Below the pieces are notes generated by a model. The model was not told where the DNA came from and did no database searches. It saw only the letters and a program-made list of their open reading frames with translations. A stretch of DNA of 64,000 nucleotides from IMG/VR virus record IMGVR_UViG_3300027749_000034; one strand, 5' to 3'. Source of the DNA: a virus (Duplodnaviria > Caudoviricetes). Positions 15,179 through 41,068 of the stretch are shown here, one piece after another. Made by a program: the position numbers and the translations under genes. Each line of letters begins with the position of its first letter. Position 1 is the first letter of the stretch.

Positions 15179-15203
15179 CAAGCCGATCAAATAAGTATAT
15201 ACT
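15175..15203 (+). promoter_or_regulatory. sigma70-type promoter of tmRNA
   Basis: TTGACA-17-TATACT. Confidence 0.85.
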
Positions 15204-15209
15204 GTAAGT

Positions 15210-15500
15210 TATTGCTGTATGAAGCAAAGAGAAAAGTGTTCTGGACGGGGGTGCGAATCCCCCCAGGTCCACCATAAGCACATAGTTGTCCTAGATGAAA
15301 GAAACCTCTTAGGGCTCTAGTGGGGATTGTGTGCTTTTGATGGGCCTGACCTAGATTCGACAGGGCAACAAGTAACAGAGTGGACAGCACGACAGCGATA
15401 GTCGTAAAAACTAAACAAAAGTAACCGCAAACGACTCACAGTTCGCATTAGCGGCCTAACAGCCACTTAGGGTAAGACATACCTCGTAACAGAAACTCAG
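15210..15500 (+). ncRNA. ssrA: tmRNA, circularly permuted two-piece form
   Basis: T-arm plus CAGGTCC-ACCA (ends 15274) precedes the 5' end GGGCCTG (15342) with G3.U; tag ORF ANDSQFALAA*; ends are approximate. Confidence 0.93.
15427..15459 (+). other. tmRNA proteolysis tag reading frame (ANDSQFALAA*)
   Basis: gca aac gac tca cag ttc gca tta gcg gcc taa. Confidence 0.9.
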
Positions 15501-15528
15501 AAAAGGTTGCTTCGGCAACCTTTTTCTT
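15501..15528 (+). terminator. intrinsic terminator
   Basis: AAAAGGTTGC-TTCG-GCAACCTTTTT. Confidence 0.9.
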
Positions 15529-15576
15529 TATAAGTATTTTTATAATACGAACATTATCACACTAAAGAATATATCA

Positions 15577-25858: not shown

Positions 25859-25887
25859 TAGACTTCTAAGTTAAAAGGATATATAAT
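25859..25887 (+). promoter_or_regulatory. sigma70 promoter of leader/attenuator 1
   Basis: TAGACT-17-TATAAT, ATG 6 nt downstream. Confidence 0.7.
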
Positions 25888-25893
25888 AATACT

Positions 25894-25959
25894 ATGTTAA
25901 ATGTAAAATTGTTACCAGGTAATACAGGACCAGCCACAGAGGATACTCCGAGGCCGTAA
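25894..25959 (+). CDS. putative leaderless leader peptide MLNVKLLPGNTGPATEDTPRP
   Basis: Starts at predicted TSS; ends 23 nt before terminator. Confidence 0.55.
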   Translation: MLNVKLLPGNTGPATEDTPRP

Positions 25960-25982
25960 CTCTACGCATAGTGAGATTACAG

Positions 25983-26013
25983 GCCCTGGAAATAAAAACT
26001 CCGGGGCTTTTTT
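25983..26013 (+). terminator. attenuator-type intrinsic terminator 1
   Basis: GCCCTGGA-9nt-TCCGGGGC-TTTTTT. Confidence 0.85.
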
Positions 26014-26018
26014 ATTGT

Positions 26019-26094
26019 GCGGGCGTAGCTCAGTTGGTAGAGCATTACCTTGCCAAGGTAAATGTCGTCGGTTCGAACCCGATCGCCCGCTCCA
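26019..26094 (+). tRNA. tRNA-Gly(GCC)
   Basis: Cloverleaf, TTACC-TT GCC AA-GGTAA, CCA encoded. Confidence 0.97.
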
Positions 26095-26098
26095 GGCT

Positions 26099-26272
26099 TG
26101 TTGTAGAAATACAACAAAAATAAAGGCAGATAGTTGTTGACAGGAATGAGTAGATAGCATATACTAGTTGAATACTGTAGCAATACAGCAGAAACAGTTT
26201 GAAAAGTGTTGTAGAAATACAACAAAAGAAAGTTAGAAAACGGTTGACATTACGGCATTGTCCGTATATAAT
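26099..26272 (+). promoter_or_regulatory. tandem operator plus sigma70 promoters (rrn P1/P2-like)
   Basis: Operators 26099-116 and 26207-224; TTGACA-17-TATACT (26137-65) and TTGACA-17-TATAAT (26244-72). Confidence 0.85.
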
Positions 26273-26280
26273 AACCAAAC

Positions 26281-26315
26281 ACTACAGCGAAAGTTGTAGT
26301 GATTGTTCTTTAAAA
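26281..26315 (+). promoter_or_regulatory. boxB-like hairpin plus boxA antitermination site
   Basis: ACTACAGC-GAAA-GTTGTAGT then TGTTCTTTAAAA. Confidence 0.7.
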
Positions 26316-26331
26316 ATTTGGTGGCATTTGT

Positions 26332-36581: not shown

Positions 36582-36646
36582 CTGCGGTCCAAAATAAATA
36601 GTCCATACAACTTAGAGTTGAATTTAAGTTAACATGGGTTATTTCA

Positions 36647-37696
36647 ATGACAATCAGATCGTCAGGCGCACTGCCTGCCAGTGAAATCAATGCCGAACTC
36701 GGGCTCGCTTCAACCGCACAAATTGGCATTGGTGGAGCAGTACCTAGAGGCCTAGCTGGCGTTGCGTCAGGTGCTATTGCATTCAGCAACTTTTATGGCA
36801 AGGCCAATCTGACACCGGGCAATGGCGGTCTATTCACAACATCAACCACATTTACAGTACCCAGCTCATCTGGCGGAACACTCAAAATATTAAGCATTGG
36901 TGGTGGTGGTGGCGGTGGCGGTGGAACAAATCGTTGTGCTGTTTATCTGTATGTGGGTGGCGGAGGAGGTGGCTCCGGAGAAATCACATTAAAAACAGTG
37001 ACCGTGACACCTGGTACAGTTTTGACAATCACAGTTGGTGCCGCAGGTTCAGCTGGCGGACAGCGTGATGGACAATATGGCGGCGGTGCCGCAGGTGGCA
37101 CAGGCGGTACTACCACTGTCAAAAACGGTGCCACTATTTTGACCGGTGCAGGTGGCGGAGGAGGTGGCGCACTTTCTCAACAGCCGTCGTCGTCACCTAT
37201 TCTTGACAACTATAGTGCTCACTTTAACCAAAGCGTTATCAATACAGCGGCCAGCACAATTTTAGCGGCCGGAGGCGCAGGTGGTTCAGGTGGCGGAGGT
37301 GGTTCAGGCTACACAAATCCGTTTGCCAGCGTGGCCGGCAATGGCACTTCTTATGCAGGTACCACCTACATGGGCGGCGGCGATGGCGGCCGTGGCTACA
37401 CCATCGATACCACCAGTGGCGTGGCTACACCATACGGCACAGGTTCTGCAGGTCGTGGCGGACGAGGAAATGTTGGCCCACAAATCCAGCTGGACAAGGG
37501 TTACTATTATTTCACGCCACAAAATAGCTGTAAAGGCGGTTCGCCTGCCGCAGGAAACTACATTGCTCAAGCAGGAAGCACCTATGGAGGTGGTGGTGGT
37601 GGTGGTGGTATGGACAACGAATATTGCGGTACCACTGGTAAAGCCACTGGTGTTGCTGGATCGGGCGGCGCTGTATTCATCTGGTGGGGTTATTGA
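36647..37696 (+). CDS. glycine-rich tail-fibre/adhesin-like protein
   Basis: SSG..xS.INAELG...FSNFYGK N-terminal module, polyglycine tracts, C-terminal G.GAVFIWW. Confidence 0.7.
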   Translation: MTIRSSGALPASEINAELGLASTAQIGIGGAVPRGLAGVASGAIAFSNFYGKANLTPGNGGLFTTSTTFTVPSSSGGTLKILSIGGGGGGGGGTNRCAVYLYVGGGGGGSGEITLKTVTVTPGTVLTITVGAAGSAGGQRDGQYGGGAAGGTGGTTTVKNGATILTGAGGGGGGALSQQPSSSPILDNYSAHFNQSVINTAASTILAAGGAGGSGGGGGSGYTNPFASVAGNGTSYAGTTYMGGGDGGRGYTIDTTSGVATPYGTGSAGRGGRGNVGPQIQLDKGYYYFTPQNSCKGGSPAAGNYIAQAGSTYGGGGGGGGMDNEYCGTTGKATGVAGSGGAVFIWWGY

Positions 37697-37697
37697 C

Positions 37698-38090
37698 ATG
37701 AGCGCACCAGCTATCACAATTGGATGTGTGTCCAATCTCTACAGCAGACAAATGCACTTTGTCAATGCAGGCGATGTTGAACTGGGTCATACTCACTTGT
37801 ATGATCATTTCACATTGTTGGCCGCTGGTAGTCTTAGAGTCACTGTAGATGGTGCTGATAATGTGTTTACTGCACCACATATGATTTTCATTAAAAAAGA
37901 CAAAAATCATAGATTAGAAGCACTGGAGAACAACACAGTGGCCTACTGTATACATGCTCTTAGAAACAATGACGGATCAGGTGATATAATGGATCCCAAC
38001 ATGATACCCATGATACCACCTGATGGTGGTACCTATCAACCAGGCTCCGAAGGCCTAGTGACTCCGAGTTTACCCGATTGGATGAAATAA
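37698..38090 (+). CDS. cupin-fold protein
   Basis: GHTHLYDH...F.APHMIFI...H cupin metal motifs. Confidence 0.7.
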   Translation: MSAPAITIGCVSNLYSRQMHFVNAGDVELGHTHLYDHFTLLAAGSLRVTVDGADNVFTAPHMIFIKKDKNHRLEALENNTVAYCIHALRNNDGSGDIMDPNMIPMIPPDGGTYQPGSEGLVTPSLPDWMK

Positions 38091-38093
38091 CAA

Positions 38094-38153
38094 ATGGCAC
38101 TACAATCATCCGGAGCCATGAATGCCAGTGATATCAATGCCGAACTCACATAA
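38094..38153 (+). pseudogene. truncated copy of the Gly-rich adhesin N-terminus
   Basis: MALQSSGAMNASDINAELT* aligns with MTIRSSGALPASEINAELG. Confidence 0.65.
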
Positions 38154-38203
38154 TGTTGTAAAAATACAACACCGGTTGACAAACTGATTTTTTGTGCTAT
38201 AAT
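38154..38203 (+). promoter_or_regulatory. operator plus sigma70 promoter
   Basis: TGTTGTAAAAATACAACA then TTGACA-16-TATAAT. Confidence 0.8.
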
Positions 38204-38223
38204 AGTCTTTTAGAAGGATTTAT

Positions 38224-38445
38224 ATGACCAACAAACAACGAGCTGTATTTGAAACTGTCAAGATGGTTGTAATTTTTATTGTAATGGGTCTGACATTCAG
38301 TACCATCATACAAACTGGCTATGGCGTATACTTGGGTATTGCCATGGTTGCACTTGGCGTGGTGTATGCATTGATCATGATGTATGAAATGAAGCTGGGC
38401 CAAATTGAATCAAAACAAAGACTAGACGAACTATCAAAAAATTAA
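38224..38445 (+). CDS. small two-TM membrane protein
   Basis: Two hydrophobic helices, AAGGA RBS. Confidence 0.7.
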   Translation: MTNKQRAVFETVKMVVIFIVMGLTFSTIIQTGYGVYLGIAMVALGVVYALIMMYEMKLGQIESKQRLDELSKN

Positions 38446-38472
38446 TAATTTTAGCCTTAACGCAACAAGAGG

Positions 38473-38501
38473 TTGACAACAAGGCTAAGTAAGTGTACAA
38501 T
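38473..38501 (+). promoter_or_regulatory. sigma70 promoter of leader/attenuator 2
   Basis: TTGACA-17-TACAAT. Confidence 0.8.
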
Positions 38502-38508
38502 GATTACT

Positions 38509-38628
38509 ATGACGAACACATTCATATCAAGACTATCGCAGTGGTGCTCAAAACAGAGCATGAGCTTCTGTGACTCCTTTAGTATGAGCTATCATGTTCG
38601 CCATATTCTAGGAGCTCATCCAGGATAA
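38509..38628 (+). CDS. putative leaderless Ser-rich leader peptide (39 aa)
   Basis: MTNTFISRLSQWCSKQSMSFCDSFSMSYHVRHILGAHPG*; starts at predicted TSS. Confidence 0.55.
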   Translation: MTNTFISRLSQWCSKQSMSFCDSFSMSYHVRHILGAHPG

Positions 38629-38649
38629 AGTAATCAGACCGTTTACTTG

Positions 38650-38678
38650 AACCCTGGACTAACACTCCGGGGTTTTTT
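38650..38678 (+). terminator. attenuator-type intrinsic terminator 2
   Basis: AACCCTGGA-7nt-TCCGGGGTT-TTTT; stem identical to terminator 1. Confidence 0.85.
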
Positions 38679-38697
38679 CTTTTTGTGATAAGGAACA

Positions 38698-38853
38698 ATG
38701 ACATTAGATAAAAAGATCAAAGAAGCAGAGTGGACACGCACTCATACATTGAGCAAAGAGCAGTTACAAAAATTGCTCCGTGACAAGATGAAGAGAGCGC
38801 AACACATGCATCAGTTAAACAAGCGAGAGATGTTGACTCAGAGACATCGTTGA
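38698..38853 (+). CDS. small basic hypothetical protein (not in ORF track)
   Basis: TAAGGA RBS; MTLDKKIKEAEWTRTH... Confidence 0.6.
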   Translation: MTLDKKIKEAEWTRTHTLSKEQLQKLLRDKMKRAQHMHQLNKREMLTQRHR

Positions 38854-38864
38854 TCGCCAAGTGG

Positions 38865-38894
38865 TTGACAGGAAACGAGGTCCTGTGCTACACT
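38865..38894 (+). promoter_or_regulatory. sigma70 promoter
   Basis: TTGACA-18-(TG)TACACT. Confidence 0.6.
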
Positions 38895-38955
38895 ATAAAC
38901 AAGCACAAACGGGCGGTACTAGGGATGAAGCACCTTGTGTGGTGTGAAAAATCTA

Positions 38956-39051
38956 GTATATTAAAGCATATACTTGCCTGACTGCAAACGTCGTGGTAAA
39001 CTACTAGAGAAAGGGGTTCAAATCCCCGGGACTGGTATGTGCTTTAATATA
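38956..39051 (+). ncRNA. tRNA-like RNA in an 18-bp closing stem
   Basis: GTATATTAAAGCATATAC/GTATGTGCTTTAATATAC; inner T-arm GGGG-TTCAAAT-CCCC; TGGTAA D-loop-like segment. Confidence 0.6.
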
Positions 39052-39098
39052 CACATTGAGCTGGCCAGGACTGTAATGTCGCAGACAGTGTGTTTAAC

Positions 39099-39183
39099 GG
39101 AGAAGAAGCATCAATGGTGATGCAGTGGACTGTAAATCCGCCGCCTTCGGGCACGACTGGTTCGATCCCAGTATTCTCCACCA
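39099..39183 (+). tRNA. tRNA-Tyr(GTA)
   Basis: Type II cloverleaf, loop CT GTA AA. Confidence 0.95.
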
Positions 39184-39188
39184 ATTTA

Positions 39189-39280
39189 GGAAGTGTGGCC
39201 GAGTCCGGTTTATGGCACTAGTCTTGAAAACTAGCGGAGGGTTAAACCTCCCGTGAGTTCGAATCTCACCGCTTCCGCCA
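39189..39280 (+). tRNA. tRNA-Ser(TGA)
   Basis: Type II cloverleaf, loop CT TGA AA, G73. Confidence 0.96.
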
Positions 39281-39287
39281 TGTCAAT

Positions 39288-39362
39288 GGGCCAGTAGCTT
39301 AATGGTAAAGCAACCGACTCATAATCGGTCGAGTCTTGGTTCAATTCCAAGCTGGCCCACCA
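39288..39362 (+). tRNA. tRNA-Ile2(CAT) (lysidine type) or Met
   Basis: GGGCCAG acceptor resembling Ile2, loop CT CAT AA. Confidence 0.85.
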
Positions 39363-39368
39363 GTTTAT

Positions 39369-39443
39369 GCCCTGTTAGTTCAACGGATAGAATTAGAGTC
39401 TTCGAAACTCAGGATGGTGGTTCGATTCCATCACAGGGCGCCA
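39369..39443 (+). tRNA. tRNA-Arg(TCG)
   Basis: Cloverleaf, loop CT TCG AA. Confidence 0.9.
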
Positions 39444-39446
39444 AGT

Positions 39447-39646
39447 TTTGTTAGAGTGTCAGCAAGAGAAAGACTCGCTAGAAGGCTTCTTCGAAGGGCC
39501 GACTAATGTTAAAGAAGGACGGGTTCAAGTCCCGTAAACGCAGTGGAGCACCTTTGTCCTGTATCCCAAGTGACTTACCGAATCCCGCTCGAGCTTGTTA
39601 ATTCGGGTGAATGGTGCTTATAATGTGGTAGCACTACTTTAACAAA
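39447..39646 (+). ncRNA. long-stem-enclosed structured RNA with T-arm
   Basis: TTTGTTAGAGT/ACTTTAACAAA closing stem; ACGGG-TTCAAGT-CCCGT at 39519-35. Confidence 0.55.
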
Positions 39647-39654
39647 TTCAACAT

Positions 39655-39732
39655 GTACAGATGCCCGAGAGGCCCAAGGGAACTGATTGCAAACCAGTAA
39701 AGCCGTCGGTTCAAATCCGACTCTGTACTCCA
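39655..39732 (+). tRNA. tRNA-Cys(GCA)
   Basis: GTACAGA/TCTGTAC, loop TT GCA AA, U73. Confidence 0.92.
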
Positions 39733-39733
39733 A

Positions 39734-39808
39734 GGTAATGTAGCATAATGGTAGTGCGCCTGCTTCATACGCAGTCCAGTGCTAGTTCGACTCTAGCCAT
39801 TACCACCA
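39734..39808 (+). tRNA. tRNA-Met(CAT), elongator-like
   Basis: GGTAATG acceptor, loop TT CAT AC. Confidence 0.88.
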
Positions 39809-39828
39809 ATTTTATAGGAGAGCCTGTT

Positions 39829-39966
39829 ATGGCCAGTGTCAAGAAAGGAACGATGACTCGTTCACCACAGTGGTGGAAACACCTTAAAGAATGGAAGCGT
39901 GTGTTCTGGAAAGCAGAACGACAAGCTCACAAAAAAGCGGGTATAGCTCAGTTGGTAGAGCAGTAG
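39829..39966 (+). CDS. small Trp/Lys-rich protein
   Basis: AGGAG RBS; PQWWKHLKEWKRVFWK; last 10 codons overlap tRNA-Lys. Confidence 0.6.
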   Translation: MASVKKGTMTRSPQWWKHLKEWKRVFWKAERQAHKKAGIAQLVEQ

Positions 39967-40012
39967 ACTTTTAATCTATTGGTCGTGGGTTCGAATCCCT
40001 CTGCCCGCACCA
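39937..40012 (+). tRNA. tRNA-Lys(TTT)
   Basis: Cloverleaf, loop CT TTT AA, CCA. Confidence 0.96.
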
Positions 40013-40025
40013 ATAAATAGTTGTA

Positions 40026-40370
40026 ATGAAAATTCAGCAAGACAGCACCGGACTTTATATTGAAACAGATGAAGTAGTCTGTCGTCCAGTTGAATCAAGT
40101 CAATTCAAATCAGATGAAGAGGTTCGGCTGGCACTTGATGCTGAAATAGCCACGGTCAGTGATGCCAATGATCGCGGTGCAAATGCCTTTGAAGAACAGT
40201 GGCAAGCAGTATACAAATCTCAGCCGGCTAGAGTTACGTCAGCGCCGGTAACTCATCCACCCATGTATTATGTAGAACACACAGGTTGGTATACTGCAAT
40301 CATAATCCTACTGGGCGTCACTGGGTTTGACCTTGGTCTTCTTGTTGGCACCATCTGGGCCAGGCTTTAA
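40026..40370 (+). CDS. hypothetical protein with C-terminal TM helix
   Basis: 114-aa ORF; TAAATA at 40014. Confidence 0.65.
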   Translation: MKIQQDSTGLYIETDEVVCRPVESSQFKSDEEVRLALDAEIATVSDANDRGANAFEEQWQAVYKSQPARVTSAPVTHPPMYYVEHTGWYTAIIILLGVTGFDLGLLVGTIWARL

Positions 40371-40478
40371 TTCCAACGGTTGAAACTGCAACTTGGCTTT
40401 GGCCAGAAGAGCATCTGGTTTAAAGTCTGCAGGTAAACACCAGGTGGCGCTGGGCAACAATTTAGATTTAACACTCAT
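40308..40478 (-). CDS. possible small protein (56 aa)
   Basis: MSVKSKLLPSATWCLP...; TAAATA 4 nt upstream; overlaps the + strand ORF end. Confidence 0.3.
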   Translation of the reverse strand: MSVKSKLLPSATWCLPADFKPDALLAKAKLQFQPLELKPGPDGANKKTKVKPSDAQ

Positions 40479-40501
40479 ACAGTATTTAAGATCATTTAGG
40501 T

Positions 40502-40574
40502 GTGACCTTAGTGTTAGCGGTCAGCACCTCGGATTGTGATTCCGATAGGATGGGTTCAAATCCCATAGGTCACC
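40502..40574 (+). tRNA. tRNA-His(GTG) lacking encoded G-1 and CCA
   Basis: GTGACCT/AGGTCAC, loop TT GTG AT, C73; T at -1; flanks extend the stem. Confidence 0.9.
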
Positions 40575-40591
40575 CCTAAACGATCTTTATT

Positions 40592-40667
40592 GCCAAGATA
40601 GCTCATCTGGTAGAGCACCTGTTTGAAGCACAGGGTGTGGTTGGTTCGAGTCCAACTCTTGGTACCA
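40592..40667 (+). tRNA. tRNA-Phe(GAA)
   Basis: Cloverleaf, loop TT GAA GC (G37). Confidence 0.93.
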
Positions 40668-40676
40668 AGTTTCTGT

Positions 40677-40750
40677 TCGGGAATGGTGTAATGGTAACAC
40701 AACACACTTTGACTGTGTCGTTCTAGGTTCGAGTCCTAGTTCCCGTGCCA
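40677..40750 (+). tRNA. tRNA-Gln(TTG)
   Basis: Cloverleaf, loop CT TTG AC, G73. Confidence 0.93.
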
Positions 40751-40769
40751 AATTTATAAGTAAGTTTAT

Positions 40770-40846
40770 AGCCTCATAGCTCAGTTGGTTAGAGCATTGT
40801 CTTGATAAGGCAAGGGTCCCCTGTTCGAGTCAGGGTGAGGCTACCA
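40770..40846 (+). tRNA. tRNA-Ile(GAT)
   Basis: Cloverleaf, loop TT GAT AA. Confidence 0.95.
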
Positions 40847-40853
40847 GGATATT

Positions 40854-40994
40854 ATGAAAAAATTATTGTCAATCTGCGTACTTGCAACAGTTGCCGCATG
40901 CGGTTCAATGCCCAAGACTTGCTCTGTGCCTGGTGAGCAAGGTTGTACAAAGATACCGGCAATAATGATTCCAATTTTCAGCAAACAGTTTTAA
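40854..40994 (+). CDS. small lipoprotein (not in ORF track)
   Basis: MKKLLSICVLATVAA-C lipobox. Confidence 0.65.
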   Translation: MKKLLSICVLATVAACGSMPKTCSVPGEQGCTKIPAIMIPIFSKQF

Positions 40995-41068
40995 GGGTCA
41001 TTAGTATAATGGCAGTACTGCGGTCTCCAAAACCGTTAGTGGGAGTTCGAGTCTCTCATGGCCCGCCA
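40995..41068 (+). tRNA. tRNA-Trp(CCA)
   Basis: Cloverleaf, loop CT CCA AA, G73. Confidence 0.94.

Follow-up and report, generated by a model that had tools for sequence, protein, structure and literature searches.

We analysed a stretch of 64,000 nucleotides (nt) from IMG/VR virus record IMGVR_UViG_3300027749_000034 (Duplodnaviria; Caudoviricetes), hereafter the window, with a focus on a short regulatory element, attenuator 2, whose promoter begins at position 38473. This 64-kb window is rich in transfer RNA (tRNA) genes: ARAGORN reports 27 of them together with a permuted tmRNA, and Rfam adds a tRNA-Tyr. Attenuator 2 precedes one tRNA array (array 2), and a sister element, attenuator 1, precedes another (array 1). 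Based on its sequence and on comparison with relatives, attenuator 2 is probably a codon-matched, ribosome-mediated leader-peptide attenuator that heads a tRNA region of the phage.

All parts of the element lie on the plus strand. A sigma-70-type promoter (38473-38501) consists of TTGACA (38473-78) and TACAAT (38496-501) separated by a 17-nt spacer, with 11/12 matches. It is followed by a leader open reading frame (ORF) of 39 codons, 8 of them for serine, and a TAA stop codon at 38626-28 (38509-38628 in total). The ATG at 38509 stands 7 nt past the −10 hexamer and lacks a Shine-Dalgarno sequence; from this spacing, the transcript would start at the A of the ATG or 1-2 nt from it, that is, it would be leaderless. 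The last 7 leader codons contain a small hairpin, TCTAGGA/TCCAGGA (38607-38625; −7.1 kcal/mol, z score −2.75). An intrinsic terminator comes next (38649-38684), made of a stem-loop of 10 pairs at 38649-75 (−14.0 kcal/mol, z −4.1) and a T-run to 38684. Between ORF and terminator an antiterminator (38619-38658) can be drawn: TCCAGG (38619-24), which forms the final two sense codons, is perfectly complementary to CCTGGA (38653-58) in the 5′ arm of the terminator, and this pairing closes an inner hairpin of AAGTAA (38628-33) with TTACTT (38643-48), so that the stop codon is included in the structure. The segment 38617-38660 forms a single long hairpin with imperfect pairing (−13.3 kcal/mol, z −3.3; 1/200 shuffles folds as stably), and the full transcript is structured as well (z −3.6). 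Behind the T-run lie a basic ORF of 51 amino acids (aa) with an AAGGA ribosome-binding site (38698-38853, from 38690 with the site), a conserved structured RNA (38859-39098) and the proximal part of array 2 (39099-41068), which encodes, in order, tRNAs for Tyr, Ser-TGA, Met, Arg-TCG, Cys, Met, Lys, His, Phe, Gln, Ile and Trp.

A first-pass annotation of the window had placed the promoter, the leaderless-type ORF with its serine codons and the terminator here, had paired TCCAGG with CCTGGA and AAGTAA with TTACTT as an alternative to the terminator, and had listed a small basic ORF and then a tRNA array downstream; all of these are present. A further helix that it proposed, ATGAGCT/AGCTCAT (38584/38613), exists in the window but is not kept in relatives, where the conserved partner of 38619-25 is TCTAGGA at 38607-13. 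It had also described the terminator stem as identical in attenuators 1 and 2, and the identity is exact: CCCTGGA..TCCGGGG occurs exactly twice in the window (25984 and 38652), against 0.00 expected. Only two of nine plus-strand terminators in the window are preceded by a short ORF of leaderless type; both head tRNA arrays, with 20 and 21 nt between the stop codon and the hairpin.

Conservation and apparent translation of the leader

Using blastn, region 37700-39700 found tRNA matches only, and no annotated relative, among 50,697 phage records, and a search for related loci with the neighbouring 73-aa ORF as query gave no match. Relatives were reached in IMG/VR and lake/marine metagenome contigs through a homologue of the 51-aa ORF, which led to a syntenic contig, and then with two exact DNA patterns. 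In this way 16 distinct versions of the attenuator-2 unit were recovered from freshwater phage contigs, and every version that has downstream sequence carries a tRNA array there on the same strand. The 16 versions share both promoter hexamers and the GATTACT that leads up to the ATG, and the greater part of the spacer is also retained, usually as AGGCTAAGTAAGTG.

The leader ORF is open in 16/16 versions, with 37-39 codons. At least five indel events fall inside it, all of them multiples of three, and 1-nt indels occur just past the stop codon. Furthermore, the block encoding WCS[KQ]QS shows purely synonymous changes (TCA/TCT/TCC, AAA/AAG, AGC/AGT). Because the frame is always open, its indels are in frame and the changes in this block are synonymous, the leader is apparently translated. 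The conserved positions of the peptide are WCS[KQ]QS and RHI[LS]G..PG, and it has no match in Pfam, PHROG or the protein atlas.

Judging from these alignments, the last seven codons are patterned as an RNA helix rather than as a peptide motif. Neither stem word, TCTAGGA (38607-13) or TCCAGGA (38619-25), changes, and the 5 bases between them vary, including changes of Ala/Val and His/Cys/Asn. The third-position T at 38619 is invariant while the residue that it helps to encode switches among H, C and N; a change of CTA to TCA keeps both pairs of the small hairpin, and CCA to CCG also preserves pairing. Across 15 versions, 100% of the cells of the hairpin at 38607-25 pair and the loop is free to vary. 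A possible role for this structure is that of a pause or anti-antiterminator hairpin.

Alternative hairpins and sister units

By their shared strand, the terminator and the antiterminator of attenuator 2 are mutually exclusive. To place the ribosome in this choice, 9 versions were folded with a 28-nt ribosome mask stepped along the ORF. Before the 3′ arm of the terminator exists, the antiterminator has a predicted probability (P) of 0.8-0.97 (about 0.96 in the window), and it dominates for all ribosome positions up to about 6 codons before the stop as well as without a ribosome. With the mask on the last ~6 codons or on the stop, P falls to 0.00. The earlier proposal, in which a ribosome standing on the stop codon covers TCCAGG and so prevents the antiterminator, is supported by the folding model, and masked folding of attenuator 1 has the same outcome. 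Geometry and masked folding fit a model in which ribosome position would choose between the two structures. RNAalifold on the entire leader gained only doubtful long-range pairs. In relatives, the terminator stem reads CCCTGGA/TCCAGGG, so that the G-U pair of the window is an A-U pair there; the loops vary, and one compensatory pair is found at the base of the stem. Metatranscriptome contigs from four studies were compared over 38100-39500. X21 (38467-38859) and X22 (38389-38863) bridge the terminator, with starts, ends and strand that are unreadable and DNA carry-over possible; X16 ends at 38677 in the T-run, and such contig ends are not readable as transcript ends.

The sister unit, attenuator 1 (25859-26015, plus strand), has the same design: a promoter, a leaderless 21-codon ORF (25894-25959), an antiterminator (25947-25990; −18.5 kcal/mol, z −4.0) and a terminator (25981-26009) with a T-run. 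A tRNA-Gly-GCC starts right behind it, at 26019. Relatives of attenuator 1 were obtained by searching related contigs and with a promoter pattern, and across this family, window included, the first tRNA begins 4-33 nt past the T-run, too close for a promoter to fit; the tRNA-Gly of the window likewise appears to have no promoter of its own. The terminator arms of the attenuator-1 variants are CCCTGGA, CCTTGGA, CCTCGGA and CCCCGGA, each matched both by the 3′ arm of the terminator and by the last ORF codons, and the variant antiterminators, judged from single-sequence folds, range from −18.5 to −24.7 kcal/mol (z −3.9 to −5.6). When the sequences of the window type are read against those of the type represented by L053, several pairs are changed on both sides, and the pair opposite the stop codon goes from UAA/UUA to UGA/UCA. 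At the same time, the peptide end shifts among RP, QA, GA and RA while the RNA pairing stays. Covariation across relatives had been named as a check on the model: its outcome is divided, the antiterminator of attenuator 2 being invariant while compensatory changes are found in the attenuator-1 family. From these alignments, compensatory support for the antiterminator comes only from that sister family.

Leaders of unrelated sequence show a similar arrangement. In two further groups, L045/L048/L049/L055 (34 aa) and L050/L066 (33-37 aa), a leaderless ORF and a terminator head large tRNA arrays, on contigs of up to 345 kb. In each group the ORF contains a copy of the unit's own terminator 3′ arm (GCGGGTC with GACCCGC in the first; GGGTTTT with AAGACCC in the second).

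The first-pass annotation had taken the shared stem as the sign of a circuit linking attenuators 1 and 2. In G004, however, one stem reads CCTTGGA and the other CCCTGGA, so that the elements look like parallel paralogous units rather than one circuit. The pattern TATAAT-N2-4-ACTATG occurs only twice in the 285-kb contig G001, at its two attenuators. We also observed the −10/ACT/ATG leaderless promoter type before ordinary long genes (in L059, L064, L070 and L075), for example that of a J-domain-like protein, so that leaderless expression is a general feature in these phages.

Codon match, proposed mechanism and alternatives

The codons of each leader correspond to the tRNAs behind it. Array 1 reads 16-17 of 20 codons of leader 1 (8.9 expected) and array 2 reads 26 of 38 codons of leader 2 (16.5-17.7 expected). 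For the window, the cross table of leaders by arrays is [[15,2],[7,24]] (Fisher's exact test, p = 1.4e-5). As a second null, real windows were cut from the phage's own long genes: about 3e-4 of these gene windows reach, for each leader, the share of residues in the array set and full coverage of that set jointly, and the cross-assignment of leaders to arrays is equalled by 4 of 200,000 gene-window pairs. Leaders 1 (10/10) and 2 (12/12) of the window, and those of L052 (10/10, p = 0.004) and L066 (16/16, p = 0.008), contain every amino acid that their own array serves. A constant core of 10 tRNA species is found in 7/7 arrays, each represented in 7/7 leaders.

Individual differences follow the same direction in some relatives. 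The array of L052 includes Cys and Tyr tRNAs and lacks Pro, Leu-TAA and Gly-TCC tRNAs, and its different leader mirrors each of these. G003 encodes its Leu-TAG tRNA in array 1, with two CTA codons in leader 1 and Leu codons absent from leader 2; the window is the reverse. The leader of L014 has no Tyr codon and its Tyr tRNA is in the upstream array; the downstream array is cut there, and attenuator 1 would be beyond the end of the contig. An Arg-TCG tRNA is present in all seven arrays but has no cognate codon in the leader of the window, and the matrix of leaders by arrays shows no dominant diagonal.

The eight serine codons had been singled out in the first-pass annotation. All 12 amino acids of the array are represented in the leader, serine being one among them, and serine-specific sensing was rejected on this ground. 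What stands of the broader proposal that the unit senses translation in order to supply tRNAs is the fit with leader composition; the emphasis on serine and the shared-stem circuit were dropped. A literature search found no publication describing leader-ORF attenuation control of tRNA genes, and the match of leader codons to array tRNAs, as computed here, appears to be new.

Several features of attenuators are present together: a promoter-proximal short ORF, codons related to the array, and an intrinsic terminator with one strand in common with an antiterminator. The parts themselves, their conservation, the apparently translated ORF, the exclusivity of the hairpins and the codon match are read from sequence and comparison. 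For their operation, we propose that host RNA polymerase would start at or next to the ATG at 38509 and that a 70S ribosome would load on the leaderless RNA. The nascent RNA may then fold the antiterminator (38619-38658), with the ORF end and stop codon as its 5′ strand and the 5′ arm of the terminator as its 3′ strand. A ribosome keeping pace would be on the last codons or the stop as 38653-58 emerges; the antiterminator would be blocked, the terminator would form and a transcript of ~170 nt would be released. A ribosome lagging at any slowly decoded leader codon, or never loaded, would leave the antiterminator free, and read-through would reach the 51-aa ORF, the structured RNA and the tRNA genes. 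The outcome would be a race that the antiterminator wins if the ribosome is late or missing. As most leader codons are ones that the downstream tRNAs decode, the unit would act as a negative-feedback gauge of those tRNAs. We infer the transcript start, the kinetics of coupling and race, the direction of the response and the set of dependent genes.

A number of observations weigh against this proposal. Every pair of the attenuator-2 antiterminator is kept in 15 versions and invariant, save for one A-U to G-U change in L017, and covariation therefore neither supports nor rejects it; at −13.3 kcal/mol it is also the weakest antiterminator of the group. In most versions folded, the full-length RNA at equilibrium favours the terminator, so that read-through depends on the assumed kinetics. 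Transcription of the array may have other sources. A promoter-like site at 38865-38894 lies inside the first hairpin of the structured RNA, its −35 hexamer found only in the window, L001 and L017, and consensus promoters stand just before the first tRNA in L002, L003, L013, L004, L019 and L024; with such sites downstream of the terminator, the tRNAs of array 2 may be independent of the attenuator. Upstream, no terminator separates the promoter at 38176 from the unit, and some transcripts may therefore carry the leader ORF internally. Finally, the codon-match hypothesis is post hoc, formed once the data had been viewed; among seven relatives, leader 2 does not significantly follow the gain and loss of variable tRNAs (odds ratio 1.4, p = 0.53), and G003 retains TCN codons though it has no Ser-TGA tRNA.

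Some of these points would fit a generic sensor of translation or coupling, in which the unit, still a true leader-ORF attenuator, reports overall translation capacity (ribosome availability, leaderless initiation or global stalling) rather than the supply of its own tRNAs, and the codon match is secondary or coincidental. The folding model treats any delay or absence of the ribosome alike, the fine-scale co-variation of leader and array among relatives falls short of significance, and leaders before near-complete tRNA sets, such as that of L048, are unable to discriminate. A generic sensor would not be expected to give one phage two complementary leaders, each following its own array at the significance reported above for the cross table and the gene-window pairs, nor the matched differences between leader and array in L052 and G003, and we consider this explanation unlikely.

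We regard as quite unlikely a second explanation, that the unit is an independent small-protein gene with a promoter and terminator of its own, the 39-aa peptide as its product and an alternative pairing that is incidental to a near-palindromic stem (TCCNGGA-like words). The conserved peptide positions, the strong terminator, the separate promoters downstream and the lack of covariation in the attenuator-2 antiterminator are all compatible with such a gene. It would leave aside that four unrelated leader sequences share one design and one position before tRNA arrays, that the peptide ends of attenuator 1 change freely while compensatory changes keep the RNA pairing, and that a tRNA follows attenuator 1 without a promoter. 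In the last codons of leader 2, moreover, loop positions vary together with their residues and stem positions are fixed, and neither Pfam nor PHROG has a family for the peptide.

A non-coding small RNA of ~170 nt from promoter to terminator, with an accidental ORF, would account for the structured transcript (z −3.6) and the conserved promoter and terminator, yet it is scarcely credible given that the ORF is open in every version, that its indels are all multiples of three against 1-nt indels right past the stop, that its codon composition fits the downstream tRNAs and that no Rfam family matches. Three other candidates were rejected: an arrest peptide of the SecM/TnaC kind (..PG is kept in leader 2, but sister units end in RP, QA, GA, RA, SR and CV), a precursor of a ribosomally synthesized and post-translationally modified peptide, which would account for neither the hairpins nor the codon match, and a T-box riboswitch, for which Rfam gives no T-box match on 38480-39110 (E values up to 10) or 24000-44500 (E up to 1).

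Downstream genes, neighbouring features and known systems

The 51-aa ORF has homologues in 11/15 versions and is absent from L002, L015, L003 and L013. From the order of the parts, this ORF would be reachable only by read-through of the terminator, and likewise the 5′ end of the structured RNA in relatives without the ORF. The protein matches no Pfam, PHROG or protein-atlas family. Its predicted structure is a two-helix hairpin (predicted local distance difference test score, pLDDT, 87.6), with which the Joint Genome Institute (JGI) label 'Xre family regulator' on two homologues is a misfit.

The structured RNA occupies the interval from the attenuator or 51-aa ORF to tRNA-Tyr, and its 5′ end abuts the T-run of the terminator in relatives that lack the ORF. 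Across 13 versions, compensatory changes are seen at 7 of the 16 pairs predicted for its 5′ domain (38859-38970). It starts with an AGTG..CACT helix round a covarying hairpin, followed by a covarying stem before AAAYGGGCGG and a covarying two-level stem; in the 3′ part, GTATTAAAGCA..TGCTTTAATAC enclose a variable insert and ACACACA..TGTGTGT a variable loop. Rfam has no family for 38480-39110, which covers the unit and the RNA behind it. The variable insert (38975-39050) contains a tRNA-like piece with the T-arm word GGGGTTCAAATCCCC and a long closing stem; this piece is shared with L015 and receives no tRNA call from ARAGORN or Rfam. The tRNA-Tyr (GTA) at 39099-39180 was missed by ARAGORN and scores 35.3 bits in Rfam; the same holds in several relatives, where it was located by its anticodon-loop word.

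Several other features were observed in the window. The palindrome TGTTGTA-N4-TACAACA has 7 copies (16025, 26099, 26207, 38154, 60609, 60643 and 61208) against 0.05 expected. Three of them stand 4-20 nt upstream of the consensus promoters at 26137, 26244 and 38176, and in relatives the palindrome is also found before array promoters; on this placement it is a candidate operator or RNA hairpin. Just upstream of the copy at 38154, 55 nt (38093-38147) repeat, at 76% identity, the beginning of the gene for a glycine-rich protein (36646-36700). Inside array 1, a consensus promoter is followed by a hairpin, CACTACAGC-GAAA-GTTGTAGTG, and a T-rich tail just before tRNA-Glu (26244-26331). A similar hairpin lies behind the equivalent promoter in L051 and L053, and the structure may be a second control type or a processing signal inside the array. 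The region 38176-38472 holds an ORF for a 73-aa membrane protein (38224-38445) between two TTGACA promoters; one metatranscriptome contig joins 38182 straight to 38468, and a relative therefore lacks this cassette. Farther away, the permuted tmRNA gene (15182-15550) comes in two pieces and encodes the tag ANDSQFALAA.

A wider scheme can be drawn from these elements, which we think very unlikely to be correct as a whole: each tRNA block of these lake phages would be gated by its own codon-panel leader in a multi-channel, default-on tRNA homeostat, with transcription halted only by sufficiently fast reading of the panel, and the 51-aa protein made by read-through would act in trans on TGTTGTA-N4-TACAACA before array promoters, relaying translation stress to all tRNA promoters.

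Multivalent leader-peptide attenuators are known from enterobacteria, where thrL and ilvL belong to a group that also includes trpL, hisL, leuL and pheL. Attenuator 2 resembles the thrL/ilvL/trpL type in its promoter-proximal translated ORF, its intrinsic terminator, its strand-sharing antiterminator and the deciding role proposed for ribosome position, and, like the thr and ilv leaders, it would respond to more than one amino acid. It differs from the thrL/trpL type in that no single codon forms a run; each of 12 amino acids (10-16 in the sister units) appears one to a few times instead. The RNA is apparently leaderless, unlike that of the enterobacterial attenuators, and the genes behind it are phage tRNA and RNA genes rather than biosynthetic enzymes. 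The response to absent translation is also different: trp undergoes super-attenuation, whereas our model predicts read-through without translation too, since the 5′ strand of the antiterminator is at the very end of the ORF and includes the stop.

The whiB7/wblC leader is listed (PMC7157823) among attenuators that depend on an upstream ORF (uORF); such systems sense ribosome stalling in general. There, too, a leader ORF precedes a terminator, slowed ribosomes lead to read-through and the output aids translation; whiB7/wblC responds to antibiotics or general stress and controls a transcription factor or resistance protein, whereas attenuator 2 belongs to a virus and has a leader whose composition reflects one particular set of tRNAs. 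The nearest published work concerns mycobacterial leaderless polycysteine short ORFs, described in bioRxiv 10.1101/834739 as mediating operonic attenuation, which are likewise leaderless cis-regulators that respond to supply for their codons. They differ in having a run of a single amino acid, Cys, and in controlling operon genes of cysteine metabolism. In T-box systems tRNA status also governs read-through into genes of translation supply, but the T-box binds uncharged tRNA directly and needs no ORF. The textbook case of pyrBI of E. coli is similar in that the outcome hinges on how closely the ribosome trails the polymerase, with the opposite sign: a close ribosome stops the terminator in pyrBI and would stop the antiterminator in attenuator 2.

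Phage tRNA genes are usually viewed in terms of codon usage or of escape from host defences that cut tRNAs, and, to our knowledge, control over the timing of their synthesis is almost unstudied. If our reading is true, a leader that samples the codons of its own tRNAs would be a direct feedback sensor of decoding capacity, the principle of the trp operon would have been reused for RNA genes, and multivalent attenuation would be widened from 2-3 to 10-16 amino acids. Such a leader would also provide a compact natural readout of how available each individual tRNA is. For the phages themselves, it would mean that they respond transcriptionally to depletion of host tRNAs, which bears on the arms race with anticodon nucleases.

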